From an uncultured Chthonomonadaceae bacterium (GTDB lineage: Bacteria > Armatimonadota > Chthonomonadetes > Chthonomonadales > Chthonomonadaceae): 64,000 nucleotides of DNA. Position numbers and translations under genes: made by a program. The stretch covers positions 384,001 to 448,000 of the forward strand of contig CAWIEK010000044.1 of assembly GCA_963835065.1 (NCBI GenBank), in the 5' to 3' direction. This document shows positions 4,308-62,714 of the stretch, piece after piece (the first letter of the stretch is position 1; each line of letters begins with the position of its first letter). Below the pieces are notes generated by a model that saw only the letters and a list, made by a program, of their open reading frames with translations, had not been told where the DNA came from and ran no database searches.

Positions 4308-5410
4308 GCCAGTTCCTCCTTTAGAAAGTCGAGGCTGTTCGCGCGCGCGGGTTCGGAGTCGGGAGTTCCCGCAAAAACCGCTTGTGGCGGCGCGTCGGAA
4401 GCGGTTTCCGTTGACCCGGGCAAAGAGGCGTCGGTTGGCGCGGAAGACTGCGCATCAAGAGTTTCTGTTTGCGCGGGCGTTTGTACGTCCGCCAATGCAG
4501 AAGCCTGCGCGTCCTGAGTTGGCGAAACGTCCGAAGCGTCCACAATAACCAGCGTAACATCGTCGTTGCGGATGGCGCGCTCGTGCCGCAGCCGGGTGAT
4601 AAAGGCGGTAAACTCCTCCTGCCCGTTCAAGCCGCAAAGCGTGTCCCAGGGGCGATTGTCCGCTTCCACTTCCACCAGAAACCACCGCGCGAGGGCATCC
4701 GTCGCAAACAGCAGCACATCCCCGGCCTGCAGCGTCCCATCCCCAATCACGATGTTATCCCAAACCCGCTTGTTGTTGGCCGGGTTGGAAGACAGCAGGG
4801 GCGGCGTACTGTCGAACTGCGCCGACGCTTCCAACGGAAACGCCATCTTCACATTCCCGTCGCGTATCTGAAACAGGCAACTGTCGCCGATAGCGAAGAC
4901 CTGGAATGATGAGTGATGAGTGATGAGTGATGAGTGAACTGCATTTTGTTCATCATTCATCACTCGGCGTTCATCATTTACCTTAAATGCCAGCAGCGTG
5001 GCGAACGCGCCGGCGCGGGCTTTGTCTTCGGCGAACCAAGGCAGGGTTGTCCAGGGAACGCGACTGTGCCATTCGACTTGGAGGGGCTGCGTCCAGGCTT
5101 GGAGGCGCTCGGTGTGGACAGGGATGGTCGCCGACGGATCGGACACGAAGCCTGCTGTCAACGCCTGCGCCCACAGCCGGGCAAACGAGCTTTCGGTTGC
5201 CCCGTCCGCAATGGCGATGCAATCCGTTGCCACTGCGTAAGCGTCTTCGTAATCCGTCTCGGAGTTGCCGCCTTTGGGCATCCAGAAGGCGCGCGGCACA
5301 AGGCCCGCCACCCGCGCGAGTTCCGGCGGAAGGGTTTGTTGTGGCAAGTCGTTATCCGTGCTGATGTTATCTGTGCCGATGTTATTTGAGCCGATTATGT
5401 CTGCCTTCAT
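4304..5410 (-). CDS. PP2C-family phosphatase (TerY-P triad), copy A, with an in-frame repeat-derived insert
   Basis: Motifs YEDAY, AIADGATES, IGDSCLF, LFATDAL and RNDDVTLV. Confidence 0.9.
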   Translation of the reverse strand: MKADIIGSNNIGTDNISTDNDLPQQTLPPELARVAGLVPRAFWMPKGGNSETDYEDAYAVATDCIAIADGATESSFARLWAQALTAGFVSDPSATIPVHTERLQAWTQPLQVEWHSRVPWTTLPWFAEDKARAGAFATLLAFKVNDERRVMNDEQNAVHSSLITHHSSFQVFAIGDSCLFQIRDGNVKMAFPLEASAQFDSTPPLLSSNPANNKRVWDNIVIGDGTLQAGDVLLFATDALARWFLVEVEADNRPWDTLCGLNGQEEFTAFITRLRHERAIRNDDVTLVIVDASDVSPTQDAQASALADVQTPAQTETLDAQSSAPTDASLPGSTETASDAPPQAVFAGTPDSEPARANSLDFLKEELA

Positions 5411-5495
5411 TCCAGCCTTTATGTCCTGCGTACGCGCGTTAGCCTGTGGTTGTCTGAGCGCCGGAGTCAGAAATTCCGAGTACCAGGGCTTTTTG

Positions 5496-6329
5496 TCAGC
5501 GGAGATTACTGGGTCGTGTGCCGATGTCCAGAAAGCGGATCAAATCCACCAGGTCGGCATTAAACGCGAAGCCCCGCGCATCCACGCCAATCGGAAAGCC
5601 TTCGCCAATTGCCGAGTCGCTCATGCTTTGCGGCAGGAGAGAAGACAGTTCAAACAATTTGCGCGCCCAGGCGTCCGGCAGTCCGGCGTCGGAATTGGGG
5701 AACACAATCGGCGCGGCGGCATGACCGGAAATGTGGCAATTGAACAGCAGCGTGTTGCCGTCGGATGTGCTTAACCCGGCCAGCGCCTGCGCTTCCTGTG
5801 TGGGGTCGTTGTTGTACTCGCCGTCCGTGATGTTGATAACGATGGGCGGATATGAATCGGGATGGTTGGCGATCCAGGTCTGGAGCAGTTGGTGCGCCAT
5901 TTTGAAGGCTTCGCCCATGGGCGTCCCGTTGTCCATGACGGGTTCGAGCCACACGGGGAACTTGATGGTCTGGTCCACCAGCCCGCCCGCGCCGTCATCC
6001 ACTTTTTTGGTTCGTTCTTCCACGCGGGTCGGATTGTTGGCGACTTCGCTGATCGGCACGAGGAACTTGCCCGCCAATGCCCCGCCGAACGCGGGCTGCA
6101 CTTTGCCGCCATACCCGATAACGCCGATCACGTAATAATCGTTGATGCCCTCGCCCTTGGCGCATTTGATGACGAGGTTTTGCAGCAGGCGGTTGATGGC
6201 GTCGGAAACGCCGTCCGCCTTGCGCTTGCCCTGCCCGCCCCCGAATGGCTCCTCCATAGATTTCGACTGATCAATCAAAAAAACAAACGCGCTGGGATTG
6301 GCGCGGCTTATTTCGGCTGAGTAGGCCAT
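5496..6329 (-). CDS. terY: vWA-domain TerY-like protein, copy A
   Basis: MIDAS motif FLIDQSKSM, GTPM and INITDGE. GGAGG RBS before ATG 6329. First gene of the vWA-PP2C-kinase operon. Confidence 0.88.
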   Translation of the reverse strand: MAYSAEISRANPSAFVFLIDQSKSMEEPFGGGQGKRKADGVSDAINRLLQNLVIKCAKGEGINDYYVIGVIGYGGKVQPAFGGALAGKFLVPISEVANNPTRVEERTKKVDDGAGGLVDQTIKFPVWLEPVMDNGTPMGEAFKMAHQLLQTWIANHPDSYPPIVINITDGEYNNDPTQEAQALAGLSTSDGNTLLFNCHISGHAAAPIVFPNSDAGLPDAWARKLFELSSLLPQSMSDSAIGEGFPIGVDARGFAFNADLVDLIRFLDIGTRPSNLR

Positions 6330-8032
6330 GAAATGCCCTCCGTAGCCCTGCATTTGTGGTCCGCAGGGATGATTTTGGTTTCGTAAGCACTACGGATGCA
6401 AAGCGGTTTGGTTTCAAAAAGGACTAATTTTTTCCCGGCGTGGAAGGTTGTGGGATTAGCGGTGGAAACGGTGGCTGCCGGTTTGTCTTCGGCAAGCAGG
6501 GTGCTGACGGCGCGTACCGCAATTTTTGCCAACAGGCCGATGCCGAACAGCGTGAGGCATAGAAACAGCAGGGTGACACTGGTACAGGTGAGCCAGCGTG
6601 GTTCGCGGCGGTTTTTTGAGGTCGAACGGGGAACGCCACGCTCTAAAGGCACGGTCGTGGGAGTGTGGGCGGGCGGCGTGTTCGGCGGCGAGGGCGCAGG
6701 CACAGACGCGGGCGTTCCGGCTTCATCCCACATGCGTTTGAGCGGCTGCAAAAAACCCAATGCGGCTTTCCCGGCAGGCGTTTTCTGCAAGGTATCCTGC
6801 GCGGGCTTCCACCAGCCTTCGTCTTCTTCGGGCGCAGGCGGCGCTTGCTGGCCGGGTACAGTCGCCGCGTGAGCCGGGGCGGATGGAGCGGGCGGGGCGG
6901 AAACCGGCGGGCGGGGAGAGGAACGCCCATTCGGAGGCGCAGGCGCAGCAGTCGGGGTTTTGCCCGCAGTCGGGGGTTTCCCCCCGGTATTTGCGGCTTG
7001 CGTCCGGGCGTTCGTGGCTTGCGTCCCGACGTTCACGGGCTGCGATTGCGCCTGCTCGCGCTGCGCCTGCGCGTTTGCGGATTTGGGTTGGGCTGTCGGC
7101 GCGGGCGGATCGTGCCACCAGGGAGTGGGCGCGGGCAGGTCGGGCAGGGAAGCAACGGTTTCCGCAAAATCCGGCACACGCCAGATCACGCCCTCACACG
7201 CTTCGGCCAATTTCTGCGACAGTTTGCGTACCAGAGGTTCGCCGCTCTGATATAAGCGCTTGAAAATGTCGGACTTTTGAGGCGCTTTGAAGTCGGTTGC
7301 GGAAAACAGCAGGTTTTCGCCCGTATGAAACGTTTCCCACAATCTGGGATCGTAAATCAGGGCGACCAGACTGGTGTAAATCACCAGAGCGGCGAAATTG
7401 TCCAGATTGGCGTTGTAGCTTTCCGCCGCGCGTTGTGGATGCTGATAGTTGGGATGGCCGAGTTCATGGCTGGCCTGTCCGCGCAGGGATGGCACGAACA
7501 AGCCGTCGTAATCCACAAGCCGCAATTCGCCGTTGGGCGTAACCAGCACATTACCATGCTGCAAGTCGGCGTGCGCGATACCGTTGTGGCGCAAGTCCGC
7601 CAGCAGTTTGCGCCACTGCCGCGCCAGTTTGCGCAGGGTGTCCGGTTCCTCAAGATGCTTGCTGATATAGGTGTGCAGCGTGACGCCTTCGACCCAGTCC
7701 ATTTTGACAATCGGATACCACTGCCCGCGCACCCGAATACCCTGCGGCTCATACGCGAACCCGACCATCCCCGGCATCTTGATCTGGCTCAGGTACGCGC
7801 TCAGGGCGGCGTAGCGCTCCCGCTGATCCGCGCTTGGGCGCAAAAAGCAGCGCACGGCCCACCGGTGTTCGCCGTTGCGCATTTCGTACACGCTGGCAAA
7901 CATGCCCGACGCCACGCGGGGCAATCCCAAGCGGTTCAGCGTGACCTGCCCGCCTTGCAATTGCGGGTCCTGAAAACACTGCTTCGGGTTTTGAACGGCG
8001 TCCTGATAATCGGAGGCAAGCGGCCAGTTCAT
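6308..8032 (-). CDS. TerY-P-associated kinase, copy B (C-terminus extends across the duplication junction)
   Basis: Near-identical to 2697..4307 at offset 3725. Diverges after ...KPAATVS. Confidence 0.88.
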   Translation of the reverse strand: MNWPLASDYQDAVQNPKQCFQDPQLQGGQVTLNRLGLPRVASGMFASVYEMRNGEHRWAVRCFLRPSADQRERYAALSAYLSQIKMPGMVGFAYEPQGIRVRGQWYPIVKMDWVEGVTLHTYISKHLEEPDTLRKLARQWRKLLADLRHNGIAHADLQHGNVLVTPNGELRLVDYDGLFVPSLRGQASHELGHPNYQHPQRAAESYNANLDNFAALVIYTSLVALIYDPRLWETFHTGENLLFSATDFKAPQKSDIFKRLYQSGEPLVRKLSQKLAEACEGVIWRVPDFAETVASLPDLPAPTPWWHDPPAPTAQPKSANAQAQREQAQSQPVNVGTQATNARTQAANTGGKPPTAGKTPTAAPAPPNGRSSPRPPVSAPPAPSAPAHAATVPGQQAPPAPEEDEGWWKPAQDTLQKTPAGKAALGFLQPLKRMWDEAGTPASVPAPSPPNTPPAHTPTTVPLERGVPRSTSKNRREPRWLTCTSVTLLFLCLTLFGIGLLAKIAVRAVSTLLAEDKPAATVSTANPTTFHAGKKLVLFETKPLCIRSAYETKIIPADHKCRATEGISWPTQPK

Positions 8033-9135
8033 GCCAGTTCCTCCTTTAGAAAGTCGAGGCTGTTCGCGCGCGCGGGTTCGGAGTCGGGAGTTCCCGCAAA
8101 AACCGCTTGTGGCGGCGCGTCGGAAGCGGTTTCCGTTGACCCGGGCAAAGAGGCGTCGGTTGGCGCGGAAGACTGCGCATCAAGAGTTTCTGTTTGCGCG
8201 GGCGTTTGTACGTCCGCCAATGCAGAAGCCTGCGCGTCCTGAGTTGGCGAAACGTCCGAAGCGTCCACAATAACCAGCGTAACATCGTCGTTGCGGATGG
8301 CGCGCTCGTGCCGCAGCCGGGTGACAAAGGCGGTAAACTCCTCCTGCCCGTTCAAGCCGCAAAGCGTGTCCCAGGGGCGATTGTCCGCTTCCACTTCCAC
8401 CAGAAACCACCGCGCGAGGGCATCCGTCGCAAACAGCAGCACATCCCCGGCCTGCAGCGTCCCATCCCCAATCACGATGTTATCCCAAACCCGCTTGTTG
8501 TTGGCCGGGTTGGAAGACAGCAGGGGCGGCGTACTGTCGAACTGCGCCGACGCTTCCAACGGAAACGCCATCTTCACATTCCCGTCGCGTATCTGAAACA
8601 GGCAACTGTCGCCGATAGCGAAGACCTGGAATGATGAGTGATGAGTGATGAGTGATGAGTGAACTGCATTTTGTTCATCATTCATCACTCGGCGTTCATC
8701 ATTTACCTTAAATGCCAGCAGCGTGGCGAACGCGCCGGCGCGGGCTTTGTCTTCGGCGAACCAAGGCAGGGTTGTCCAGGGAACGCGACTGTGCCATTCG
8801 ACTTGGAGGGGCTGCGTCCAGGCTTGGAGGCGCTCGGTGTGGACAGGGATGGTCGCCGATGGATCGGACACGAAGCCTGCTGTCAACGCCTGCGCCCACA
8901 GCCGGGCAAACGAGCTTTCGGTTGCCCCGTCCGCAATGGCGATGCAATCCGTTGCCACTGCGTAAGCGTCTTCGTAATCCGTCTCGGAGTTGCCGCCTTT
9001 GGGCATCCAGAAGGCACGCGGCACAAGGCCCGCCACCCGCGCGAGTTCCGGCGGAAGGGTTTGTTGTGGCAAGTTGTTATCCGTGCTGATGTTATCTGTG
9101 CCGATGTTATTTGTGCCGATTATGTCTGCCTTCAT
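8029..9135 (-). CDS. PP2C-family phosphatase, copy B
   Basis: Differs from copy A at three residues (S/T, D/N, I/V). Confidence 0.9.
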   Translation of the reverse strand: MKADIIGTNNIGTDNISTDNNLPQQTLPPELARVAGLVPRAFWMPKGGNSETDYEDAYAVATDCIAIADGATESSFARLWAQALTAGFVSDPSATIPVHTERLQAWTQPLQVEWHSRVPWTTLPWFAEDKARAGAFATLLAFKVNDERRVMNDEQNAVHSSLITHHSSFQVFAIGDSCLFQIRDGNVKMAFPLEASAQFDSTPPLLSSNPANNKRVWDNIVIGDGTLQAGDVLLFATDALARWFLVEVEADNRPWDTLCGLNGQEEFTAFVTRLRHERAIRNDDVTLVIVDASDVSPTQDAQASALADVQTPAQTETLDAQSSAPTDASLPGSTETASDAPPQAVFAGTPDSEPARANSLDFLKEELA

Positions 9136-9220
9136 TCCAGCCTTTATGTCCTGCGTACGCGCATTAGCCTGTGGTTGTCTGAGCGCCGGAGTCAGAAATT
9201 CCGAGTACCAGGGCTTTTTG

Positions 9221-10054
9221 TCAGCGGAGATTACTGGGTCGTGTGCCGATGTCCAGAAAGCGGATCAAATCCACCAGGTCGGCATTAAACGCGAAGCCCC
9301 GCGCATCCACGCCAATCGGAAAGCCTTCGCCAATTGCCGAGTTGCTCATGCTTTGCGGCAGGAGAGAAGACAGTTCAAACAATTTGCGCGCCCAGGCGTC
9401 CGGCAGTCCGGCGTCGGAATTGGGGAACACAATCGGCGCGGCGGCATGACCGGAAATGTGGCAATTGAACAGCAGCGTGTTGCCGTCGGATGTGCTTAAC
9501 CCGGCCAGCGCCTGCGCTTCCTGCGTGGGATCGTTGTTGTACTCGCCGTCCGTGATGTTGATAACGATGGGCGGATACGAATCGGGATGGTTGGCGATCC
9601 AGGTCTGGAGCAGTTGGTGCGCCATTTTGAAGGCTTCGCCCATGGGCGTCCCGTTGTCCATGACGGGTTCGAGCCACACGGGGAACTTGATGGTCTGGTC
9701 CACCAGCCCGCCCGCGCCGTCATCCACTTTTTTGGTTCGTTCTTCCACGCGGGTCGGATTGTTGGCGACTTCGCTGATCGGCACGAGGAACTTGCCCGCC
9801 AATGCCCCGCCGAACGCGGGCTGCACTTTGCCGCCATACCCGATAACGCCGATCACGTAATAATCGTTGATACCTTCGCCCTTGGCGCATTTGATGACAA
9901 GGTTTTGCAGCAGGCGGTTGATGGCGTCGGAAACGCCGTCCGCCTTGCGCTTGCCCTGTCCGCCCCCGAACGGCTCCTCCATAGATTTCGACTGATCAAT
10001 CAAAAAAACAAACGCGCTGGGATTGGCGCGGCTTACTTCCGCTGTATAGGCCAT
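9221..10054 (-). CDS. terY: vWA-domain TerY-like protein, copy B
   Basis: Near-identical to copy A (YTAEVS vs YSAEIS; MSNS vs MSDS). Confidence 0.88.
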   Translation of the reverse strand: MAYTAEVSRANPSAFVFLIDQSKSMEEPFGGGQGKRKADGVSDAINRLLQNLVIKCAKGEGINDYYVIGVIGYGGKVQPAFGGALAGKFLVPISEVANNPTRVEERTKKVDDGAGGLVDQTIKFPVWLEPVMDNGTPMGEAFKMAHQLLQTWIANHPDSYPPIVINITDGEYNNDPTQEAQALAGLSTSDGNTLLFNCHISGHAAAPIVFPNSDAGLPDAWARKLFELSSLLPQSMSNSAIGEGFPIGVDARGFAFNADLVDLIRFLDIGTRPSNLR

Positions 10055-19214: not shown

Positions 19215-19335
19215 AGGTGTTAGGTGTTAGGTGTTGGGAACACCGCAGCGTTTGCATCAGGAACTACTATGCAGTCATTACAACAACAGCCGAATACGGA
19301 CGCTCCGAACACCCAACACCCAACACCCAACACCC
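19215..19335. repeat. Heptamer palindrome (AGGTGTT)3 ... (AACACCC)4
   Basis: Complementary tandem arms. The left arm starts 2 nt after the AAA stop codon. Confidence 0.9.
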
Positions 19336-20092: not shown

Positions 20093-20130
20093 TCACCACA
20101 GAGGCACAGAGACACAGAGGGGTCACAGAG
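20093..20130 (+). repeat. Nonamer repeat arm CACCACAGAG-GCACAGAG-ACACAGAG
   Basis: Same sequence as 62494-62531. Confidence 0.85.
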
Positions 20131-20225
20131 AAAAGAAGAAAAGGAGAAGAGGAGAAGGGGAGGGGAGAACCGCGAAAGATTCGAACCAAAACGAAAAAGA
20201 GTTAGGGGAAGAGGAACAAGCGGAA

Positions 20226-21384
20226 GTGATTCAGCCGCAGGGGAATGGGTTGCGGGTTGCTATGTTTGCGCCGGTTCGGGAGCAGTGCGGCGTGAGTGAT
20301 TACAGCCGCTTGTTGGTGGATGCGCTGCGTACTGTGCCGAATGTAGGGGATGCGCGCGTTGTTGAGGCGCAGGATTTGGCTGTTCAGGGGAGCGCTTTAC
20401 GAGCGCTAATTCGTTATCCGTTGGCGGAACGCGAATATGCGCGAATGGGCGCGCGGCTGAACGCGGAGGGCGCGGATGTTGCCCATATCCAGCATCAGTA
20501 TTTCTTTTTTGGCGGGGTTGCGCCGCACAAGAACCATGCGCGGGCGTTTCTTGGATGCCATCCGCGTACCTGTTGTCATGACCGTGCATGAGATTGCGCA
20601 GGCGGACGCAAAGGCGAATCTGCTTGTTCGCGCCGCAATCCGGTTTACTAATCGGCGCAACTTTCTACACCCCGCCATTCGCGCCCTGATTGCGCATACG
20701 CCGAGTGACCGCGAACAGCTTCTGGCTTTGGGCGCAAAAGCAGGCATGATCCATGTGCTGACGCATCCCATTCCGCCCGCCGCGCCGATGCCCCCGATGG
20801 AAGACGCCAAACGCGCCCTTGATTTGACCGGCAGGCGCGTGGTGACGCTGTTCGGGTTTGTGGCCGCGAAAAAAGGCCATTTGACGGCTTTGACGGCCCT
20901 GCCCTTGCTGCCTAATGATGTGGTTCTGGTATTTGCGGGCGGGCAGCACCCGCAGGACCATACCGATTATGTTCCCATGCTGCGCCGCTACATTGCCGCG
21001 CATGGATTAGAAGCCCGCGTTCGTATTACCGGCTATCTGGACGAGGCGCAAATTCCCGTTGTCATGGCGGCGACGGACGTGGCGATTACGCCATTCACGC
21101 AAACATCCGGCTCCGGTTCGCTGGCAAACCTGTTCGCGTATGGCCGCGCGGTTGTCGCTTCCGACATCGCGCCGCATCAGGTGATTGCGCGGGAACAGCC
21201 GGGATGCCTGGACTTGTTTCACGGCCCGGATGCTCACGAGTTTGCCGCGCGCATTAACGCCGTACTCGACAACCCAACGCGCCGTCAAATGCTGCAACAA
21301 GCCGCCCTCGCCTACGCCCAAAACCACTCGTATCTGGAAATGGCGCGGCAAACGGCGGAAATCTATGAAGGCATTAGGCATTAG
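20226..21384 (+). CDS. Glycosyltransferase family 4, split by a 1-nt frameshift near 20550
   Basis: N-part CGVSDYS...HIQHQY lies in ORF 19905..20591. C-part VVMTVHE, FGFVAAKKG and SGSGSL lies in 20476..21384. Confidence 0.82.
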
Positions 21385-21507
21385 GCATTAGGCATTAGAT
21401 ACAAGGCACAAGTTGTTTAGCGCTGGCATGGAAAGCAAATTCTTGTCGCTTTATACCTAACCTTTAATGCCTAATATCTAATATCTAATGCCTAATGCCT
21501 AATGCCT
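21369..21507. repeat. Heptamer palindrome (AGGCATT)4 ... (AATGCCT)n
   Basis: The left arm contains the upstream TAG. The right arm abuts ATG 21508. Confidence 0.93.
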
Positions 21508-22710
21508 ATGCTCTTCGCCATTGATGGCCGCGCCCTCACCGGGCGCTATACGGGCGACCGCACCTACTGGCGCAATCTGCTGCGCGTGTTGCCGCGCCTT
21601 GCGCCGACAGATACGTTCTGCATCTACTCGCGCCTGCCGATTGCCCCGGAGGAACTGCCGCCGTTCCCGAATGTTTCGTACCGGGTGGTTCCGGCCCGTA
21701 ATGACCGCATTTGGGCGCTCATAGCGTTGCCTCGCGCCCTGAGGCAAGCGCGGCCTGATTTGCTGCATGTGCAGTATACGATTCCGCCCGCCTGCCCTTG
21801 CCCCGTTGTCACAACCGTACACGATATTTCGTTTCGAGTCTCGCCGGAGTGGTTTCCACTGAAAGACAGGCTGCTGCTGAACATGACCATTCCCGCCGCC
21901 ATGCGCCATGCCGCCCGCGTGATTACCGACTCGGAAAGTTCGCGCAATGACATTTTGAGCGCGTACCGCGTGCCGGAGAGCCGCGTCGTTTCCATACCAT
22001 TAGGGCTGCCGCCGGAGTTTGCGGCGCAGGTGGATGTTTCCGAATCTTCAATTTTGGGAAGAAGTGACAACGCGCTTGAAAGTGACAGCCAAACGCGCGT
22101 CCGTCGGCAGGAAATCGCGCGGCAGAAGGTGAAACAACAGTATGGGCTAGAAGCGCCTTATCTGCTTGCGGTCGGTGTGCTTCAGCCGCGCAAGAACCTG
22201 CGCCTGCTGGCTCGCGCGTTCGGCAAAGCGAAAGCAGCATATAACTTGCCGCATCAACTGGTTCTGGCGGGGAAAGCGGGCTGGCAGACGGAAGAAGAAG
22301 CCTTGCGGCAGGAAGCGCGGGAGGGCGGCGGCGAAGATGCGGCCGAAGCGGTTGTGTTTCCCGGCTACATCGCCGATGCCGACCTGCCGGACTTGTACCG
22401 CGCCGCCGATGCTTTCGCGTACCCGTCACTGCACGAGGGTTTTGGGTTTCCGCCCCTCGAAGCGATGGCATGCGGAACGCCGACACTGGTTTCCGACGCG
22501 CCACCCATGCCGCATAATGTGGGCGAGGCCGCGATTGTCGTTCCGGCGCGCGATGTGGACGGTTGGGCAGAAGCCTTAGGGCGCGTACTGACGGACGCCG
22601 AACTGCGAACAAAATTGTCGATTCGCGGACCCGAACGCGCTTTACAGTTTACGTGGGAAGAAACGGCAGAACAGACGTTGCGCGTGTATCGTGAGGTTGT
22701 TGGGGGTTGA
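21508..22710 (+). CDS. Glycosyltransferase family 4 (group 1)
   Basis: Motifs VTTVHDIS, VGVLQPRKN and YPSLHEGFGFPPLEAMACG. Confidence 0.93.
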   Translation: MLFAIDGRALTGRYTGDRTYWRNLLRVLPRLAPTDTFCIYSRLPIAPEELPPFPNVSYRVVPARNDRIWALIALPRALRQARPDLLHVQYTIPPACPCPVVTTVHDISFRVSPEWFPLKDRLLLNMTIPAAMRHAARVITDSESSRNDILSAYRVPESRVVSIPLGLPPEFAAQVDVSESSILGRSDNALESDSQTRVRRQEIARQKVKQQYGLEAPYLLAVGVLQPRKNLRLLARAFGKAKAAYNLPHQLVLAGKAGWQTEEEALRQEAREGGGEDAAEAVVFPGYIADADLPDLYRAADAFAYPSLHEGFGFPPLEAMACGTPTLVSDAPPMPHNVGEAAIVVPARDVDGWAEALGRVLTDAELRTKLSIRGPERALQFTWEETAEQTLRVYREVVGG

Positions 22711-22735: not shown

Positions 22736-22837
22736 CAGGTTTCAGGGGCCATTCGTACTCTTCCCTTTTCGTTATGCCCGAAAGAAGTACAAGAAACAGT
22801 GTATTTCCTGACACCTGACACCTGAAACCTGAAACCT
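22736..22837. repeat. Heptamer palindrome (CAGGTTT) ... (CCTGACA/CCTGAAA)4
   Basis: caggtttcagggg pairs with cctgacacctgacacctgaaacctgaaacct. Confidence 0.8.
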
Positions 22838-23583: not shown

Positions 23584-23586
23584 CAT

Positions 23587-23617
23587 CAGGGGTTAGGGGT
23601 CGGGGGTCAGGGGTCAG
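23587..23617 (+). repeat. Orphan heptamer arm (CAGGGGT)4
   Basis: caggggttaggggtcgggggtcaggggtcag, directly after the aroQ stop codon. Confidence 0.8.
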
Positions 23618-32076: not shown

Positions 32077-32168
32077 AGGCATTAGGCATTGGGCATTAGG
32101 CATTAGGGAAGATAAACATTCTAACTGACCTCCTGCTAATGCCTAATGCCCAATGCCTAATGCCTAAT
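32077..32168. repeat. Heptamer palindrome (AGGCATT)4 ... (AATGCCT)4
   Basis: Same unit as 21369. Fills the hrcA-grpE gap. Confidence 0.93.
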
Positions 32169-32843: not shown

Positions 32844-32931
32844 GTTAGTTGATAGTTGATAGTTGATAGTTGATAGTCCCGTCTGCCGGGCTACTTTCCT
32901 ATCAACTATCAACTATCAACTATCAACTATC
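32844..32931. repeat. Heptamer palindrome (TAGTTGA)4 ... (TCAACTA)4
   Basis: Occupies essentially the whole grpE-glmM intergenic space. Confidence 0.95.
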
Positions 32932-35458: not shown

Positions 35459-35575
35459 TTCACCACCAAGACGCCAGGAACACCAAGATAAGAAAACAAC
35501 GAAAAGATAGTGAATGGGAAAACTGTTCGTTTTTCTTCTCGTTCTTCTTGGTGTTCTTAGCGTCTTGGTGGTGAA
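35459..35575. repeat. Nonamer-type palindrome (CACCAAGAC) between convergent genes, possibly a bidirectional terminator
   Basis: ttcaccaccaagacgccaggaacaccaaga pairs with tcttggtgttcttagcgtcttggtggtgaa. Confidence 0.88.
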
Positions 35576-35578: not shown

Positions 35579-36757
35579 TTACGCCTGAATAATAGAAGCG
35601 GCAAAACGCTCCATCTCCTCTAACTGCGGGCTGCATTGCAGCAGCAGGAAATCCACGCCGACGGCTTCAAACGCGGCGATTTGTTCCTGCACCTGCGCGG
35701 GCGTTCCCACCAGACCGGAGCGCAGGCCGCGATTGGAAACCGAGTAATCTTCCAGCGACACCTGCTGTTCCAGTTTCGTTCCCGCCAGCCATTGCTGATA
35801 ATTGGCGTACCCCGCTGCGGAACTCTTGACATCCGTTATCCGCGCTTTTTCCGCCTGCGCGTCCGCTTCCGTGTCCCGCACGATGCTGTACGCCGCCACG
35901 CCATACAGCATCGGCTCCAATCCGAACTGTTTGCGCCGCGCGTTCATGTCCCGTATCCGCTCCCCGATCTTTTCGGGCGGGTCGCCGTGCATCACATACC
36001 CATCACACGTCCGCGCAATCAAATTCTTCGCCGCCTCCGACTCGCCGCCGGCGTAGAGGAGGGGAGTTGAGGGTAATGATGAGTGATGAGTGATGAGTGA
36101 TGAATGGGATTTTGCATTGTATTCATCATTCATCATTCCGCGTTCATCATTGCCTGCTGTTCCCTGTTCCCTGTTCCCTGTTCCCTGTCCCTCCTCTTCT
36201 TCCTTTTCCCTTTTCCCTTTTCCCTTTTCCCTTCCTAAAGGTTTCGGCTGCAAAATGTTGTCTTCAACCTTGTAATAGCGGCCTTCGTGGGAGAAATGGT
36301 CCTGCTGCCAGACGCCGTTGAGGACGGTGAGCCATTCTTCGGTGCGGGCGTAGCGGTCGTCGTGCTGCTCGAAGTGGACGCCGTATTTTTTGGCTTCGTC
36401 GGCCCACCACGAACTGACGACGTTGAGCGACAATCGGCCCCCGCTGATGTGGTCAATGTTGGCGGCTTGCTTGGCGAGCAGGGCCGGGGAATGGAACGTA
36501 GGCCGCACGGCGACCATGATTTCCTGTGTTTTGGTAATCGCCGCCAATGCCGCAGCCGTTGACCAGGCATCCAGCGAGGGCGCGTCCGTGCCTTTAATAT
36601 CGTTGAGGTTGAGTTCGGCCACGAGTGTCAGGTCAAAGCCGATTTCTTCGGCCCGCAAAGCCACGCGGGACGCATATTCCCACGTCGCCGCCATGTTCTC
36701 CTGTTCCACATTGCGCAGCCAGCCGCCGAAAATGGGCAGCCAATATCCGTAACGCAT
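35579..36757 (-). CDS. LLM-class flavin-dependent monooxygenase with a ~55-aa repeat-derived in-frame insert
   Basis: Motifs AEEIGFD, IMVAVRP, IDHISGGRLSLNVVS, YAGGES and LVGTPAQV. Confidence 0.92.
   Translation of the reverse strand: MRYGYWLPIFGGWLRNVEQENMAATWEYASRVALRAEEIGFDLTLVAELNLNDIKGTDAPSLDAWSTAAALAAITKTQEIMVAVRPTFHSPALLAKQAANIDHISGGRLSLNVVSSWWADEAKKYGVHFEQHDDRYARTEEWLTVLNGVWQQDHFSHEGRYYKVEDNILQPKPLGREKGKGKREKEEEEGQGTGNREQGTAGNDERGMMNDEYNAKSHSSLITHHSSLPSTPLLYAGGESEAAKNLIARTCDGYVMHGDPPEKIGERIRDMNARRKQFGLEPMLYGVAAYSIVRDTEADAQAEKARITDVKSSAAGYANYQQWLAGTKLEQQVSLEDYSVSNRGLRSGLVGTPAQVQEQIAAFEAVGVDFLLLQCSPQLEEMERFAASIIQA
36074..36233. repeat. Nested heptamer arrays inside the LLM gene: (TGATGAG)/(TCATCAT) hairpin + (CCCTGTT)4 + (CCCTTTT)4
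   Basis: Read directly from the sequence. The reading frame is preserved. Confidence 0.93.
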
Positions 36758-36763
36758 AAGTAA

Positions 36764-36888
36764 ATGATGAATGATGAGTGATGAATGATGAGTGATGACA
36801 GAGATGCGTATTCCGTTCCTCCCTGCTAATAGGAAAGAGCGAACTGAAGCGAATCTCTTCATCACTCATCATTCATCACTCATCATTT
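36764..36888. repeat. Heptamer palindrome (TGATGAR)n ... (YTCATCA)n
   Basis: Contains the ATP-grasp stop codon. Ends about 6 nt from the LLM ATG. Confidence 0.92.
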
Positions 36889-49965: not shown

Positions 49966-50147
49966 TGCAATCCAAGCCTTTTCTCGTTGTTCGTCCGCTA
50001 TAGTACGCAATAAGATGTGAACTGTCCTATAAAGAAAGACAGAGTACACCATCGCATTATCTTGCATTTCATTGGTTTGCATTATAACGCACTTTTGGAA
50101 TTTTGTCAAGAGCGGGAGGAAAAAAGAAGAAAAGAAGAAAAGAAGAG

Positions 50148-50176
50148 AAGACAGAAGACAGAAGGCAGAAGACAGG
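50148..50176 (+). repeat. Orphan heptamer arm (AAGACAG)4
   Basis: aagacagaagacagaaggcagaagacagg. Confidence 0.75.
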
Positions 50177-50515
50177 CTAATATACCTGGGCGTAAATAAC
50201 CAGTTATCTTGCGTCCGCAGGACAATTGGCCGAAGGTCTAACAACCGGCAGAGATTAAATAGTTATAATTCGGTTAGGAGCAGGCGAAAAAAAGAGTGGC
50301 AGGCAAAAGGAGAGAAAGCCTGCCACCCAAGGAAGGAAGGTGAACTCGAATCGTTTATAGTATCGGCGCTTTTGCCCGCTTTCCTTACCCCTGTAATCTG
50401 ATTAATGACAAAACCCGTATTTTTCCCTGTATCTTCCGCTCCTTTTCTCCTTTTCTTCTCTGCTTCTTTTGCTTCTTTTCTTCTTTTCAGGCGTTTTAGC
50501 GTACAATAAAGTAAT

Positions 50516-53147: not shown

Positions 53148-54587
53148 ATGGATTCCACCAAAGGGAAAATTACCCAACCGCAACCCGACGGGAACAATCC
53201 AACCCCGTCCGGCGCAGAGGCTTCTGCGCCGGACAAAATGCTGTATCAGGAAGCCCTGCGCCCGCAGTTTCATTTTAGCGCGCGGCAGAACTGGCTCAAT
53301 GACCCCAATGGCCTCGTCTTCTACAAAGGCGAGTACCACCTGTTTTTTCAGCACAACCCGCATGGCAACGAGTGGGGCAACATGACGTGGGGGCATGCCG
53401 TCAGCCGCGACCTGCTCCACTGGAAGCAACTGAACCCCGCCCTGGAACCCGACGAAATGGGAACCATGTTTTCCGGCTCCGCAATCGTGGACCACAACAA
53501 CGCGACGGGCTTCGGAACCGGCAAAGAAAAGGCTATTGTCGCCATTTACACCGCAGCCGGAGGCACATCGCCCGCCTCGCAGGGACAGCCGTTCACCCAA
53601 TGCCTGGCCTATAGCGCAAACCGGGGCCGTACCTGGCACAAATACGCCCGCAACCCCATCCTGAAACACATCGCGGACGGCAACCGCGACCCCAAAGTGA
53701 TTTGGCATGAGCCAACGCAAGCCTGGATTATGGCGCTGTATCTGGATAAAAACGATTTCGCCCTGTTCGCGTCCCCCGATCTGAAAAACTGGTCCCACCT
53801 GCACAACCTCACCCTGCCCGGCTGTGAGGAATGTCCCGACTTTTTTCCATTGCAAGTGGAAGGCAGCACTATGGGAACGCAGTGGGTGTTTATGGCCGCG
53901 AATGGACACTATCTTGTCGGCAGTTTTGACGGCAGGAAGTTTACGCCACACGGCCCCGCGCAGCCCTCGGATTACGGCGCGAATTTCTACGCGCCGCAAA
54001 CCTACAGCGACATTCCCGGCGTGGACGGCAGGCGTTTGCAAATCGCGTGGATGCGCGGCGGCAAATACCCCGAAATGCCCTTCAATCAGCAGATGAGCTT
54101 TCCCTGTGTGTTGACGCTGCGGCAGACGGCGCAGGGCTTACGCCTGTATCGCTGCCCCGCCGCCGAAATCAGCAAACTGGTCGTCAAGCAACAGCGCTGG
54201 CAAAACCTGTCACTGAAGCCCACGCAAAACCCGTTATCGGGTCAGCAGGGCGAGTTGTGGGACATGGACGTGGAGTTTGAACTGGAAAACGGAAGCGAAT
54301 TCGGCGTAACAACAAGGGGCGCAACCATCCGTTACAACGTCGCCGCCCAAACCCTGACCTGCCTCGAAAGCAGCATCACCTTAGAACCCGTCAACAACCG
54401 AATCCAACTGCGCCTCCTCGTAGACCGCAGTTCCTTAGAAGTATTCGCCAACGACGGCAGCGTGTCCCTCACCAACACCTTTCATCCCGCGCCCAACGCG
54501 CCGGATTTAACCCTGTTCGTCACCGGCGGCACAGTGAAAGTGGTCATGCTGCGGGTGCGCGCGCTGGCGTCGGCGATGGGAAGGTAG
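53148..54587 (+). CDS. Glycoside hydrolase family 32 (levanase/beta-fructosidase)
   Basis: Motifs WLNDPNG, WGHAVS, FSGSA, RDPKV, ECPD, FYAPQT and DRSSLEVF. Confidence 0.95.
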   Translation: MDSTKGKITQPQPDGNNPTPSGAEASAPDKMLYQEALRPQFHFSARQNWLNDPNGLVFYKGEYHLFFQHNPHGNEWGNMTWGHAVSRDLLHWKQLNPALEPDEMGTMFSGSAIVDHNNATGFGTGKEKAIVAIYTAAGGTSPASQGQPFTQCLAYSANRGRTWHKYARNPILKHIADGNRDPKVIWHEPTQAWIMALYLDKNDFALFASPDLKNWSHLHNLTLPGCEECPDFFPLQVEGSTMGTQWVFMAANGHYLVGSFDGRKFTPHGPAQPSDYGANFYAPQTYSDIPGVDGRRLQIAWMRGGKYPEMPFNQQMSFPCVLTLRQTAQGLRLYRCPAAEISKLVVKQQRWQNLSLKPTQNPLSGQQGELWDMDVEFELENGSEFGVTTRGATIRYNVAAQTLTCLESSITLEPVNNRIQLRLLVDRSSLEVFANDGSVSLTNTFHPAPNAPDLTLFVTGGTVKVVMLRVRALASAMGR

Positions 54588-54697
54588 ACAGTAGACGGTA
54601 GACAGTAGAAATGCCGGGCGTCCCATAGCTTTGTACTTCTATAACAGGCTGCAAGGCAGGTTTCTACCGTCTACCGTCTACTGTCTACTGTCTGCCT
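54582..54697. repeat. Heptamer palindrome (GTAGACR)4 ... (YGTCTAC)5 between convergent genes
   Basis: The left arm contains the GH32 TAG. The right arm ends next to the SDR stop codon. Confidence 0.93.
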
Positions 54698-55643: not shown

Positions 55644-55682
55644 GGTGTTCGGTATTCAGGTGTTCAGGTGTTCAGGTGTTGG
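55644..55682 (+). repeat. Orphan 7/8-mer arm (CAGGTGTT)n
   Basis: cggtgttcggtattcaggtgttcaggtgttcaggtgtt. Confidence 0.75.
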
Positions 55683-56178: not shown

Positions 56179-56210
56179 TCGGTATTTGGTATTCGGTGTT
56201 CGGTATTAGG
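56179..56210 (+). repeat. Orphan heptamer arm (CGGTATT)4
   Basis: tcggtatttggtattcggtgttcggtattagg. Confidence 0.7.
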
Positions 56211-56238
56211 GTCCTGTCTTCTTCTCTCCTCTTCTTCC

Positions 56239-56610
56239 CTACCCCGGCGGCCACTGCATGAAGCGCCCGCCCAGAATATGCCAGTGGACGTGATGCACAG
56301 TCTGCCCGCCATTGTCGCGGGTGTTCAGCACCGTGCGGAAGCCTTCGTCCGCCATGCCGAGGATAGTGGCCGTTTGCTGCACGGCAAGCAGGGCGCGGCC
56401 TAAAAGCCCCTCATCGCGCATCTCCATAAGCGTTGGGTAGTGCGCTTTCGGTATCAGCAGGACGTGAACGGGAGCCTGCGGGTGCATGTCCCGAAAGGCA
56501 ACGAATTCTTCGTTTTCAAAAACCGGCGTGACGGGAATCTGGCCTCCTGCGATTTTGCAGAAGATACAGTTGCTGTCCGTCACTTCGATGGCCGCGTCTG
56601 TACTGGTCAT
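56239..56610 (-). CDS. Histidine triad (HIT/Hint) nucleotide-binding protein
   Basis: Motifs CIFCKI, PQAPVHVLLIPK and GGQTVHHVHWHILGGR. Confidence 0.95.
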   Translation of the reverse strand: MTSTDAAIEVTDSNCIFCKIAGGQIPVTPVFENEEFVAFRDMHPQAPVHVLLIPKAHYPTLMEMRDEGLLGRALLAVQQTATILGMADEGFRTVLNTRDNGGQTVHHVHWHILGGRFMQWPPG

Positions 56611-57223: not shown

Positions 57224-57237
57224 TACGGGGTTCTCCT

Positions 57238-57848: not shown

Positions 57849-57981
57849 AGGACAAGCCATGCCGCCTTCTTGTCAACTTCATCTTCCACGAAACGTTTTT
57901 CTCCGCGCCTGCCTCCATTATAACTCAAATACGCGGAACTACCATGCCTTACGACAGTTACAAGGCGCAGGCGGTAAATTC

Positions 57982-58485: not shown

Positions 58486-58526
58486 ATCCTTTATCCTTTT
58501 TATGGTCAGCGCTGCAAGGCCGGTCC

Positions 58527-58799: not shown

Positions 58800-58853
58800 C
58801 AGAATATCCTTTCTACCAATCAAGGAAATGTGTACTTCTGTTACATTTTGGGT

Positions 58854-59456
58854 TCAAGGAACCAAGCGGGCGCACTCGGCGCAGACATAATCCAGCAGGC
58901 CGAGCAGACGTGGTAGGTCGGTCAGGGCGTACTGGTCGGTTTCGTACACGTCGCCGCCCCGTTCCCATTTATAGAATAGCCAGCCCTGCCCGTTGCTCAC
59001 GATGCCGTATACATCTACGTCGTGGCCTTCCTGTCGGTTGTTCCACGCGCAGGCGTACATTTCAGCCAGGCATTGCGCCTGTCCGCGCTCGAAGTCGTCG
59101 CGTTTGGCTTCGACAGCGCACAGGAGGGGCGTTTCCAGATAGGCGCGAAAGGGCGCAATCAGGTAGTCGGCTATGCCCGTTAAGGTATCCGTTTCCAGAG
59201 CCGCCGCTTTCCACACTTTCAAATTCGGATGGTTCGGCACCACTTCGGCAAACAGGGCGTCAATCAGCAGCGTTTTAGCCTGTTCCGTTGATCGCAGATC
59301 GAACGAATTCAGACGACTCAAATGCGTCAGCAAAGCCTCACTTGGCGGACGCGCAGGGGCGTTCGGCTGCCACAGCGTTAATGTCTGCCTGCCAAGCATC
59401 TGCATGACATCTTTGAGTTTGATAACCGAGTATTTGTGTTTGGTTGATTTTCTCAT
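58854..59456 (-). CDS. Hypothetical restriction-endonuclease-fold protein
   Basis: GIADY, AVEAK, GQAQCLAEM and YGIVSNG.GW.F resemble HsdR-N-like PD-(D/E)xK motifs. Confidence 0.7.
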   Translation of the reverse strand: MRKSTKHKYSVIKLKDVMQMLGRQTLTLWQPNAPARPPSEALLTHLSRLNSFDLRSTEQAKTLLIDALFAEVVPNHPNLKVWKAAALETDTLTGIADYLIAPFRAYLETPLLCAVEAKRDDFERGQAQCLAEMYACAWNNRQEGHDVDVYGIVSNGQGWLFYKWERGGDVYETDQYALTDLPRLLGLLDYVCAECARLVP

Positions 59457-59558
59457 GAGGAAAGCGCGTCTGCGTATACTTTCAGGGTTGTTTTTACTCC
59501 TGCCCTCATTATAACGCAAACGCGCTCGAACTACAATCGCTATGTACGATGGTGTACG

Positions 59559-62471
59559 CTATGCGGCTGGCAACAGTGGTTTGAGGAAGCGGCCTGTGTG
59601 TGAGCGGGGGTTGGCGGCGACTTGTTCGGGTGTGCCTTCGGCGACGATTTCGCCGCCTTTGTTGCCGCCTTCGGGTCCCAGGTCTATGATCCAGTCCGCC
59701 GTTTTAATCACGTCCAAATGGTGTTCGATGACCAGAACCGTGTTGCCCGCCTGCAACAGCCTGTCCAGACTGTCGAGCAGGCGCTGAATGTCGGCAAGGT
59801 GCAGGCCCGTTGTCGGCTCGTCCAGAATGTACAGATTGCGCCCGCCCCGCTTGATCTTGCTCAGTTCGTTCGCCAGTTTCACGCGCTGCGCTTCGCCGCC
59901 CGAAAGCGTGGTTGCCGCCTGACCCAGCGTGATATAGCCCATGCCCAACTCGTTCAGGATGCCCAGTTTGTGCGCGATTAATTTCTGGTCGCGGAAGAAC
60001 GCCGCGCCCGCCTCGACGGACAACGCCAGAATGTCCGCAATGCTTTTGTCCCGAAATTTCACTTCCAGCGTGTCCTGATTGTACCGCGCGCCCTTGCAGG
60101 TCGGGCAGGGATTCTCCACTTCCGGCATGAAGTGCAGATTGACCGTGACAATGCCCTCACCCCCGCACTCCTCGCACCGCCCGCCCTTGACGTTGAACGA
60201 AAACCGGGAGGGCGTATAGCCCCGTGCCCGCGCTTCCTCGGTTTCGGCAAACAGGCGACGAATGTCGTCGTAAAAGCCGATGTACGTGGCCGGGTTGGAG
60301 CGCGGCGAGCGGCCAATGGGTGATTGGTCTATGTTAATCACATCGCTCAGATGCTCAATGCCCTCCATACCTTCATGCGCCCCGGAAAGAACGCGGCTGT
60401 CATGGAAATGGTTATACAATCGCTTGTACAAAATTTCGTTCACCAGCGTACTTTTGCCGCTTCCCGACGCGCCCGTGACGCACACGAACAGGCCGAGCGG
60501 AATCTGCGCGTCAATGTGTTTCAGGTTGTTCTCATGCGCCCCGCGTATCGTCAGGAATTTCGCGCCCACAGGCCGCCGCGCAGGGGGAACCGCAATCCGC
60601 TTGCACCCGCTCAAAAACTGCCCTGTCAGCGAATTGGGATTGGCGATAATATCCGCCGCCGCGCCCTGCGCCACCACTTCGCCGCCGTGTATGCCCGGCC
60701 CCGGCCCGATTTCGATGATGTAATCCGCCGCCCGTATGGTTTCCTCGTCATGCTCCACCACGATTACGGAATTGCCGATGTCGCGCAGGCGTTTGAGCGT
60801 GTTGATCATCTTCACGTTGTCTTTGGCGTGAAGGCCGATGCTTGGCTCGTCCAGCACGTACAGCATGCCCATCAATCCCGACCCGATCTGCGTGGACAGG
60901 CGAATCCGCTGCGACTCGCCGCCCGCAAGCGTAGACGCCCGCCGGTTCAGGTTCAGATATTCCAGTCCGATGCCGATCAGCAAATCCAGCCGCGTAACAA
61001 TTTCTTTTGCCACATGCCGCCCCGCCTGCTCCTGCCGCCCGCCAGCCGGCAAATTTGCCAGAAAGTCGCGCAGTTCGTCAAGCGGCAGCAGACCCAACTC
61101 GTGGATATTGCGCCCGTTCATCGTGACAAGCAGGCGCTGCGGCTTCAGTTTCGTGCCCTTGCAGTCCGGGCAGACGTGTTCCACCATCACCTTCTTGATG
61201 TACTCTTCTATCCACGTATTGGCGACTTTTTCCTTTTTGTAGCGCCGATACCGCCGCTCGATGTCGTTGATAACGCCGTTGTACCGAAACAGCTTGCCGA
61301 CGTGTTCTTCCCCTTTTGTCGCGCCCTCCGGCAATACCATTTCAAACTTCTCGCCCTTGCTGCCGTACAAAATCACGTCTACCGCGCCGGATGGCAATTC
61401 TCCAAACGGCGTGTCCAGCGAAAAGCCATAGTGCTGCGCGAGGCTGACCAGCAGCCGCGTCGCCCAGGCGTTCTTGTCGTAATGAAAAACTTCGTTGACG
61501 AACGCCCCGCCCCGTATACTGCGCTTCTTGTCGGGAACCAGCAAATCGGGATGGACTTTCATGTAAACGCCCAATCCCGAACACGTCACACACGCGCTGT
61601 CCGGCTCATTAAAGCCGAAGTAATAGGGCATCAATTCGCCCATTGTAATCGCGTGTTCCGGGCAGGAAAAAGGGGCGTCAGAGGAAAAAGGAGAAAGGAG
61701 AAAGGCAAAAGTCTCCGCACTTGCTGCTTTCTCCTTTTTACTTTTTACTTTCTCCTCTGAGATGCGAAAGCGTATGAACCCTTCACCGACCCGCAGCGCA
61801 TTGGCGAGGGAAATCAGCAGGCTCTTGTGAATGTCAGGCTTGATGTAAAAGCGATCTACAACCACGTCCATTTCATACGCGCGGCCTTCGTCCAAATCCA
61901 GATCGTCGCTGATGTCGCGCAGTTCGCCGTCAATGTAAATGCGCCGATAGCCTTTGCTGCGTATTTCGCCCCACAGATACGGGTAATCCTCGCCATAGAT
62001 TTTGAACACGGGCGCGCACAGTTCGATAGCGGTTCCAGGTGGCAGAGCCAGCAGACGCTCGGCGATTTGCTCCGGCGTCTTCACGGCCACTTCCTGCCCA
62101 CAGCGCGGACAATGCGCAATCCCCACTGTCGCGTACAAGATGCGCAGATAATCGTATAAATCCGTCATTGTCCCGATGGTAGAGCGCGGGTTCTTGCCAA
62201 TCGTCTTCTGCTCAATGGAAACGACGGGCGACAATCCGACAACCATATCCACATCCGGCTTCTTCAACTGCTCCACAAACCGCCGCGCAAACGTGGACAT
62301 GGCATCCAGAAACTTCCGCTGCCCCTCCGCATAAATCGTTTCAAACACCAGCGACGACTTGCCCGACCCGCTCAACCCCGTCACAACGACAAGTTGATCG
62401 CGGGGTATCTCCACGTCAATGTTCTTCAGGTTGTTCTCGCGCGCCCGCTTCACCGCAATCGTCTGTCGCAT
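59559..62471 (-). CDS. uvrA: Excinuclease ABC subunit A (UvrA family, possibly a secondary paralog)
   Basis: Two ABC ATPase modules ([16 protein letters not shown]), zinc fingers, [20 protein letters not shown] and LDEPTTGLH. Confidence 0.95.
61679..61759. repeat. Heptamer palindrome in frame inside uvrA: (AAAGGAG)n ... (CTTTTTA/CTTTCTC)n
   Basis: Encodes [27 protein letters not shown]. Confidence 0.82.
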
Positions 62472-62493
62472 AAAACCTCCAATACGCAAATTC

Positions 62494-62714
62494 TCACCAC
62501 AGAGGCACAGAGACACAGAGGTTTCACAGAGGAAGGAAAAGAGAAGAAATAGACAGGATTAACAGAATTTTCAGGATTAAACAGGATTACTCAAGGAGAG
62601 AACACGCTTGTGGCTACTCCCACTTGTATCTTATATCTTGACCCTTGTATCTCTTATCTTCTCTTTCTCGTATTTCTCTGTGAAACCTCTGTGTCTCTGT
62701 GCCTCTGTGGTGAA
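62494..62714. repeat. Nested palindrome: outer CACAGAG nonamer arms enclosing (ACAGGATT) and (CTTGTAT) arrays
   Basis: caccacagaggcacagagacacagaggtttcacagag and its reverse complement at 62676-62712. Confidence 0.93.

Follow-up and report, generated by a model that had tools for sequence, protein, structure and literature searches.

Dispersed heptamer-array elements in a Chthonomonadaceae genome and their association with four-helix-bundle genes

The window analysed here is a stretch of 64,000 nucleotides from an uncultured Chthonomonadaceae bacterium (Armatimonadota; NCBI GenBank assembly GCA_963835065.1, contig CAWIEK010000044.1, positions 384,001 to 448,000 of the forward strand), taken from an assembly of 8.0 Mb, 57% GC and 71 contigs (G000; its contigs are given below as C-numbers). 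Tandem arrays of 7-base units, termed arms, were found between and within its protein-coding genes, singly or as inverted pairs around a short spacer. These gene-less elements are real, numerous and unaccounted for by the element classes known so far; their arms share the design that brackets genes for a four-helix-bundle (4HB) protein in many phyla, and we infer their mechanism from anatomy, distribution and this association. The G-rich form of an arm is written R and its complement Y.

Repeat loci in the window

The original prediction had described about 18 repeat loci in the window as one family. Repeats of the described kind were found at 18 of 18 coordinates, and the heptamer loci held together as a family; the three 'nonamer' loci (20093, 35459 and 62494) belonged to a separate family linked to GxxExxY genes. 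Nor were all of the others separate period-7 loci, since 4905 and 8630 were a single duplicated event, and 55644 and part of 50148 had period 8. Clean inverted pairs lay at 4905, 8630, 19215, 21369, 32077, 32844, 36764 and 54582; 61679 was an imperfect pair, 22736 had a weak left arm, 36074 was composite, and lone or hybrid arms lay at 23587, 50148, 55644 and 56179. An Rfam scan of the window gave no match.

Three loci (4905, 8630 and 36074) lay within genes and in frame. At 4907..4978 a TGATGAG-type R arm and a Y arm with a short spacer lay in frame in a PP2C-like gene (4304-5410, minus strand). Its copy at 8632..8703 was carried by a near-identical tandem duplication of a kinase / PP2C-like / vWA cluster (2740-6146 and 6465-9871, shift 3,725 bases) and was no independent event. 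The duplicated kinase genes also held 18- and 21-base GC-rich tandem repeats (3223-3319 and 6948-7044), which were unrelated to heptamer arms. The composite at 36074..36233 comprised four arms, with three types of unit among them, and lay in frame within a gene of luciferase-like type (35579-36757, minus strand); family relatives had no arms at this site, and genome G002 carried other units there. An AAAGGAG-type pair (61682..61751) within the uvrA reading frame (59559-62471, minus strand) was a putative insertion.

Among the remaining heptamer loci, an AGGTGTT R arm / AACACCC Y arm element (19215..19335) began 2 bases past the stop codon of a gene for an AAA ATPase, an AGGCATT element (21369..21508) separated two glycosyltransferase genes, a CAGGTTT element (22736..22837) had a decayed R arm and an intact Y arm (22807-22837), and a lone CAGGGGT R arm (23586..23617, plus strand) stood 3' of the stop of a type II dehydroquinase gene. 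A second AGGCATT element (32077..32168) lay at the hrcA-grpE junction, and a TAGTTGA element (32846..32931) occupied the whole grpE-glmM junction. The original prediction had proposed to look in relatives for empty sites or different units at these two junctions: another unit was found after grpE in the congener G001, and the hrcA-grpE array was absent from the grpE loci scanned in 29 relatives, several of these loci being short. A TGATGAG/AATGATG element (36763..36885) lay 5' of the luciferase-like gene; its site held 8-mer arms in G002 and no arms in G001 or G013. Stacked R arms (AAAAGAAG and AAGACAG; 50122..50175, plus strand) were accompanied by a degenerate Y tract at 50438-50488. A GTAGACA/GTAGACG element (54584..54693) was placed between convergent genes, a lone 8-mer R arm (GGTGTTCA) at 55644..55680 (plus strand), and a hybrid of a CGGTATT R arm and an unrelated pyrimidine tract at 56179..56240.

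The GxxExxY-type loci were a mixed locus at 20093..20162 (plus strand; an 8/9-mer arm, then an AAAAGGAG-type 8-mer R arm), a gene-less hairpin at 35459..35573 of an 8/9-mer family distinct from the heptamer family, and, at 62494..62714, outer arms with a 9-mer arm between them as well as a Y tract of degenerate heptamers.

Arrays and arm anatomy across the genome

Exact arrays of at least 3 copies numbered 1,330 at period 7, compared with 31, 32, 123 and 6 at periods 5, 6, 8 and 9, and a Markov-5 simulation of 2 Mb yielded no exact period-7 array. A mismatch-tolerant scan gave 2,109 period-7, 430 period-8 and 139 period-9 arrays. In 472 complementary pairs less than 200 bases apart, the left arm had more G than C in 435, equal G and C in 37, and less G than C in none. 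AG lay within the unit of 1,684 of the 2,109 period-7 arrays, and AG or GG in 1,977. The constancy of period, of a G-rich 5' arm and of an AG or GG per unit was thus borne out beyond the window, and the genome-wide check proposed against ordinary slippage found other periods rare and the opposite polarity absent.

Arms were then assembled into elements, with GxxExxY-type units excluded and R/Y counts taken in corrected orientation for units of equal G and C. The 2,457 arms formed 1,551 elements covering 103 kb (1.3% of the genome). Neighbouring arms stood as R then Y 700 times and as Y then R 8 times, and the order R..R Y..Y was kept in 743 of 751 multi-arm elements. An arm had been said to be usually followed by its complement; matching arms did face each other at 421 R-to-Y junctions (median spacer 56), whereas 279 of the 700 joined differing arms (median spacer 17) and 800 of the 1,551 elements showed a single detected arm.

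In the heptamer families the median arm length was 28-33 bases; most arms started and ended in phase. In-phase cores per arm (n = 2,109) were 3 in 176, 4 in 854, 5 in 947, 6 in 91 and more than 6 in 41; the detection threshold clipped the few-core end of this distribution and left the fall beyond five cores unaffected. Period-8 arms had a core-number distribution of the same shape. Arms are thus modules of about 30-33 bases with 4-5 in-phase cores and the G-rich strand toward the element centre.

The units fell into 105 classes. That these were not copies of one miniature inverted-repeat transposable element (MITE), as had been argued, was confirmed by 47 units with at least 5 copies each and by a shared spacer in some families only, about 38% off consensus. 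Idiosyncratic arm variants recurred at 11-37 places each, and arms are therefore copied between loci as whole modules; the earlier suggestion of repeat synthesis, taken as synthesis unit by unit, was not supported, given this recurrence and two reverse transcriptase (RT) genes that lacked flanking arm pairs.

Spacer lengths had their mode at 54-60, and 331 of 442 spacers were singletons. Another genomic match was found for 135 of the 442, and those inspected were arm remnants, duplicates or members of a shared spacer family; capture of genomic DNA as spacer was rejected on this basis. In the AGTAGTC family, 67 homologous spacers were about 38% off consensus and their arms 1.2% off the unit. 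This spacer (57 bases, weak dyad symmetry) also lay between several other arm types. Its conservation by base was 64% for A, 60% for C, 58% for G and 60% for T, and adenine-specific mutagenesis of the kind produced by diversity-generating retroelements (DGRs) was rejected. Outer and inner arms of stacked elements showed no age difference (p 0.71).

Position of the elements relative to genes

Genes were called with a dicodon script, so that starts and intragenic counts are approximate. An arm was present at 1,162 of 6,352 called gene junctions, 475 of 1,190 measured element edges lay -5 to +9 bases from a stop codon, and 248 elements lay at least 240 bases inside called open reading frames (ORFs). 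For 70 intragenic elements with both flanks matched in 2.0 Mb from two congeners, 46 homologues were at least 8 residues shorter, 18 were of similar length and 6 were longer; in the cases shown, homologues of similar length often had other arm peptides at that place. Occurrence in ORFs was unit-specific (AGTAGTC 0 of 158, AGGCATT 1 of 274, AACAGGG 144 of 273), which is consistent with filtering by reading frame. An ARAGORN tRNA call with a TTA (stop) anticodon at C42:1858-1953 was probably spurious.

The stop-codon edges invite a reading in which the junction hairpins are RNase III or 4HB-binding sites that tune operons and are kept by selection. Paired elements folded at -51 to -71 kcal/mol, RNase III cuts the stem of the rRNA intervening sequence (IVS; PMC4990558), and TAACTGA repeats have been proposed to act in translation (PMC4679880); papers are cited here and below from the portions available. 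On the transcribed strand, however, G-U was not favoured over A-C (64 vs 84, p 0.12), so that selection on RNA pairing is not supported; pairing at the 279 hybrid junctions was poor or absent, 248 elements lay deep in ORFs, and units were freely exchanged at a site (below). The palindrome is thus not essential, and we hold this reading to be very unlikely. RNA effects of the elements are likely a by-product and not the explanation of their spread.

Genes bracketed by arms

No partner-gene candidate was found among 60 ORFs scanned in the window, in agreement with the original prediction, which had seen no candidate mobiliser there. Elsewhere in the genome lay three PF05635 4HB genes (rRNA-IVS/Avd-like; C25:14102, C8:32017 and C33:57207), and each of the three was bracketed by inward-pointing 7/8-mer arms. 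Arms and outer ends of the C8 cassette were shared with gene-less AGTAGTC elements. At the C25 gene the junction context resembled that of the window duplication at 2740-9871, with the cassette followed by a kinase-like ORF. Homologous 4HB loci were collected from many phyla (79, of which 76 were evaluable), and period 7 was found upstream in 45, downstream in 51 and on both sides in 34 of the 76, compared with 20 of 815 control windows; any other period occurred in at most 3 of these flanks. The arm design that brackets 4HB genes is thus common to many phyla, and the gene-less elements and the 4HB cassettes very probably form one family.

Three GxxExxY genes (PD-(D/E)XK nuclease) in the genome carried distinct 8/9-mer arms. 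The linked 8/9-mer family had 41-80 matches per motif in the genome, sometimes nested with heptamer arms, with sites outside the window at C19:8329, C39:76631 and C3:174084. Among 68 evaluable of 80 GxxExxY homologues, the 8/9-mer motif stood upstream of 47 and none had period 7 in its flanks; at 4HB genes the motif was found in the flanks of 2 of 76. Period 7 and period 8/9 arms therefore constitute a double dissociation of 4HB and GxxExxY, and both gene types suspected at the outset are each bracketed by their own arm type.

The other two suspects, RAYT-type (Y1) transposases and RTs, fared differently. The four PF01797 matches for Y1 transposase genes had no heptamer arrays within 1 kb and were rejected as partners; three of the four had inverted repeats of their own. 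These were long, non-heptamer and TIRtron-like (C42:76532, C51:103107 and C49:523763), and the C51 repeat had further copies in the genome. The two RT genes had nearby arms on one side only, with no flanking arm pair, were unlinked to the 4HB cassettes and were likewise rejected.

These results bear on a MITE- or REPIN-type family mobilised in trans by a Y1/RAYT-like transposase or a GxxExxY nuclease, with 4HB as cargo or helper. The anatomy is REPIN-like, with conserved arms and unique spacers of fixed length (mode 54-60; PMC3337134), both candidate gene types reside in the genome, and GxxExxY arms are intermixed with heptamer arms. Such mobilisation is nevertheless quite unlikely given the Y1 genes without heptamer arrays and with their own inverted repeats, the absence of period 7 from all 68 GxxExxY flanks, and hybrids at 279 of 700 junctions against none reported among SBW25 REPINs (PMC3337134). 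The 4HB gene is the partner identified by association.

The nearest solved structures to 4HB were 2GSC and 2RLD (five chains each), and Xcc0516 is a homopentamer (PMC4990558). Four positions of the 4HB proteins (Q, R, E and E) were invariant, and the structure predicted for 4HB had a pLDDT of 97. A profile comparison matched 4HB to the DGR protein Avd (E about 1e-4, probability 58%), a relationship that is also in print (10.1101/2023.10.23.563531), so that the likeness to Avd draws on sequence profiles and papers. In the Avd pentamer all five protomers touch an RNA of about 30 nt, with flipped bases in crevices (10.1101/2023.10.23.563531; PMC6182149).

Change at occupied sites

Sites were compared with G002, in which 39 of 67 orthologous junctions armed in G000 were also armed, versus 9 of 119 that were arm-less in G000. 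At 73 element sites of G000, G002 had a different unit in 38, a shared unit in 17 and none detected in 18, so that the unit differed at 38 of 55 sites occupied in both, one of the outcomes that the original prediction had proposed to look for at orthologous junctions. A spacer was clearly kept in 1 of 17 comparable congener pairs, and general spacer retention between congeners was rejected.

Duplicate blocks within the assembly (strain haplotypes or segmental copies; 92-100% identity, on contigs C25/C37, C27/C29, C36/C61, C43/C69, C57/C58, C32/C63 and others) provided 34 element pairs with flanks 90-99.5% identical. Inner changes numbered at most 2 in 24 pairs, amounted to about one unit in 3, and affected 22-64% of positions in 7 (6 sites); single-unit gains and losses were observed. 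In the pair C61:8572 and C36:2099, 91 of 195 inner positions differed compared with 9 in 700 flanking bases; both arms had changed unit, and a 15-base spacer stretch, unique to these two places, was retained. Arms, or arms with their spacer, are thus exchanged at a given site in all-or-none steps. Turnover faster than that of arm-less intergenic DNA was not supported, and the elements differed in the kind of change only; two of the diverged arm-less controls contained arm-like sequence. Among related strains' DNA, contigs broke at elements and no clean empty site was found. In a multicopy insertion sequence (IS)-like repeat, a single TAGTTGA-family arm was present in some copies only (C49:687481 vs C51:19103, C9:27532, C16:112763 and others).

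Host processes might account for such changes: slippage favouring period 7, fold-back that templates one arm on the other, and gene conversion that spreads modules, with 4HB as a captured passenger. Slippage of the polymerase has been given as the cause of the heptamer excess (Mrazek 2007, in the summary of PMC4679880), single units are gained and lost, some array-rich genomes are without detectable 4HB, and short imports from diverged strains could look like 'rewriting'. Against this stand the sharp five-core cap with phased ends, the polarity of 435 to 0, the ties of period 7 to 4HB and of period 8/9 to GxxExxY, and the concentration of differences inside the C61/C36 pair (91/195 vs 9 in 700 bases). 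We regard an origin from host processes alone as unlikely.

An arm-like tract at cyanobacterial retroelement targets

Two array-rich cyanobacteria were 4HB-negative, and both carried DGR Avd and RT (noted post hoc); six smaller genomes with Avd only had few arrays. Directly 3' of the conserved end of the putative DGR target gene, avd loci of cyanobacteria had a pyrimidine tract of Y type, whose 4-5 cores lay 7-8 bases apart and which resembled a single Y arm. It was present at 10 of 13 anchor-motif sites (11 cyanobacterial avd loci) versus 13 of 1,202 windows, these loci being kin and their targets and pairs of variable region and template repeat (VR/TR) putative. Two of the three anchor sites without the tract lay elsewhere in coding sequence and one was interrupted. 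At loci L373, L376 and L378-L385 the tract was about 100-340 bases upstream of avd. Because the tract follows the target gene, the variable region lies on the arm's 'inner' side, like the spacer of an element. The available portions of PMC5758913 and PMC10907252 make no mention of such a tract.

The tract and the two Avd- and RT-bearing genomes would suit a telomerase-like or retro-type process, in which an RT, aided by an Avd-like pentamer, extends repeats on both sides of a break. Avd is known as a partner of RTs, and head-to-head fusion of G-rich 3' extensions would give the observed polarity and allow the two sides to differ. The two RT genes of G000 lacked flanking arm pairs, however, no Avd was found above cut-off in G000, G001 or G002, spacer variation was spread evenly over the four bases, and variant arms recurred as whole modules. 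We consider this process highly improbable.

Proposed mechanism

On balance we lean slightly towards a model in which gene-less elements with the arm design of 4HB cassettes are distributed over the genome and replaced in place, likely through a 4HB ring on a five-core arm. The best reading is accordingly the factor recognising a 7-nt-periodic structure that had been suggested beforehand. One 4HB pentamer would cover one arm, with one core per protomer crevice, and would recognise the period and the AG core to a greater degree than the remainder of the unit, which may be why dozens of units coexist. With one ring per arm, the five-core cap, the wide range of units tolerated and the unconstrained spacer would be accounted for. 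Once bound, the structure may open in the middle, and host repair or some catalyst may then patch it with sequence from another element; the two sides would be patched partly independently, which would give hybrids and stacked arms. Spacers would diverge if the arms alone are read. Survival may be filtered by the host, with stop-free arms remaining in ORF loops and others at gene junctions.

Co-occurrence of arrays and 4HB genes was counted for the five-core pattern, with thresholds set after the counts had been seen and with kin that are not independent. In the order of G000 (G000 included), 12 of 18 4HB-positive genomes had the pattern at least 40 times versus 3 of 23 others, where low counts may stem from cassette arms alone. 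In the cyanobacteria sampled, with the seed genome left out, the pattern occurred at least 100 times in 18 of 35 4HB-positive genomes versus 2 of 45 without 4HB, and among cyanobacteria of at least 4.5 Mb a high array load was found in 18 of 23 versus 2 of 13. Co-variation of 4HB protein and arm unit (partial Mantel r -0.27, 73 loci, quick tree) is explained equally well by co-transfer.

Several observations, together with the post hoc thresholds and shared kinship of these counts, weigh against the model. G001 (97% complete) had 201 pattern matches and no 4HB by three queries, G015, G003 and G142 had no 4HB match, G109 had a weak match only, and 17 of 35 4HB-positive cyanobacteria had fewer than 100 pattern matches. 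Units of the resident cassettes were found exactly in 442 of 2,457 arms and within one base in 651. Four-core arms (854) nearly matched five-core arms (947) in number, and longer arrays occur in other genomes. Identity below 85% was as frequent in arm-less intergenic controls (7 of 35, mostly indels) as in elements (7 of 34), and import from a diverged strain could be the source of the rewritten pairs. Neither a target motif nor a target duplication was established; the relatives compared were too distant, and a 5-base duplication was noted in a single pair of copies of the IS-like repeat. 4HB is not known to have a catalytic role.

Cyanobacterial short tandemly repeated repetitive (STRR) sequences are dispersed repeats of period 7. 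A wider proposal, which we advance tentatively and rate as doubtful, is that the 4HB pentamer reads a five-core period-7 code and drives a transposase-free 'copy-and-replace' class behind the heptamer repeats of many phyla (STRR, TAACTGA, GGGAATC), behind IVSs in 23S rRNA and behind hundreds of loop inserts that are translated, and that DGRs have co-opted ring and tract (after cyanobacterial targets) to mark the place of rewriting. Two long-standing open questions, the bacterial heptamer excess and what the 'rRNA IVS protein' family does, are linked here, and a literature search, largely of papers outside subscription, found none that connects 4HB genes with dispersed heptamer elements. The model predicts five cores for five subunits in a single footprint of about 30 bases. 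With their positions at 1,162 of 6,352 junctions and 248 places deep in ORFs, the elements shape operon junctions and protein loops. If the model is true, replacement at occupied sites with no transposase to be recognised would give selfish DNA a new mode of persistence, and the arm-like tract may bear on DGR target recognition and on the origin of Avd.

Comparison with known systems

A close gene-bearing precedent is the 23S rRNA IVS of Coxiella and Leptospira, in which an S23p/PF05635 ORF lies between inverted ends (PMC4990558), as in the three cassettes here and unlike the gene-less elements of the window. Beside the start of the Coxiella ORF stand tandem heptamers (GACAGAT, one base from the AAGACAG family) in variable number, which the available portions of that paper do not tie to dispersed repeats. 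The cassettes of G000 differ from IVSs in lying between protein-coding sequences and not in 23S rRNA, and in the company of about 1,550 gene-less elements.

Dispersed heptamers of Xanthomonas (GGGAATC), Nostoc (GGGGAYT; PMC4692102) and Beggiatoa (TAACTGA; PMC4679880) resemble the arms in period 7, in mostly about 4 units, in convergent pairs (70 in Xcc) and in positions just upstream of start codons. In the portions available they were treated singly, as simple sequence repeats, G-quadruplexes or regulator sites, and without a mechanism. Judged by description, they appear to be of the same class as the present elements, the cyanobacterial sample being the one tested here. Simple sequence repeats made by slippage would have any period, random orientation and open-ended length, unlike the arms, and a MITE family would share terminal and internal sequence, unlike the 47 recurrent units.

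DGRs share with the elements a homologous pentamer and copy-and-replace at a fixed site (10.1101/2023.10.23.563531; PMC6182149), and in cyanobacteria an arm-like tract after the target gene. Unlike DGRs, the elements are linked to neither an RT nor a template repeat and show no change specific to adenine; Avd was below cut-off in G000. Rickettsia palindromic elements are likewise inserted in frame in working genes (PMC3733652), but form one palindromic sequence family, whereas the arms here are modular tandem arrays that encode low-complexity peptides.

REPIN/RAYT systems and TIRtrons have in common with the elements two inverted arms, a unique spacer of fixed length, a gene-bearing version with these repeats at its flanks, and intergenic and some intragenic copies (PMC3337134, PMC3733652). 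Inverted doublets whose spacers are conserved in length and unique in sequence were found here as in REPINs; arms confined to one group were not, given the 279 hybrid junctions. Repetitive extragenic palindromic (REP) and REPIN arms are short palindromes tagged GTAG or CGTC, whereas the arms here are tandem arrays that are not palindromic and draw on 105 classes of unit, and the REPIN/RAYT partner is a Y1/HUH transposase, near whose four matches in this genome no arrays were found (within 1 kb). The elements work like REPIN/RAYT with another partner and are not members of that family.

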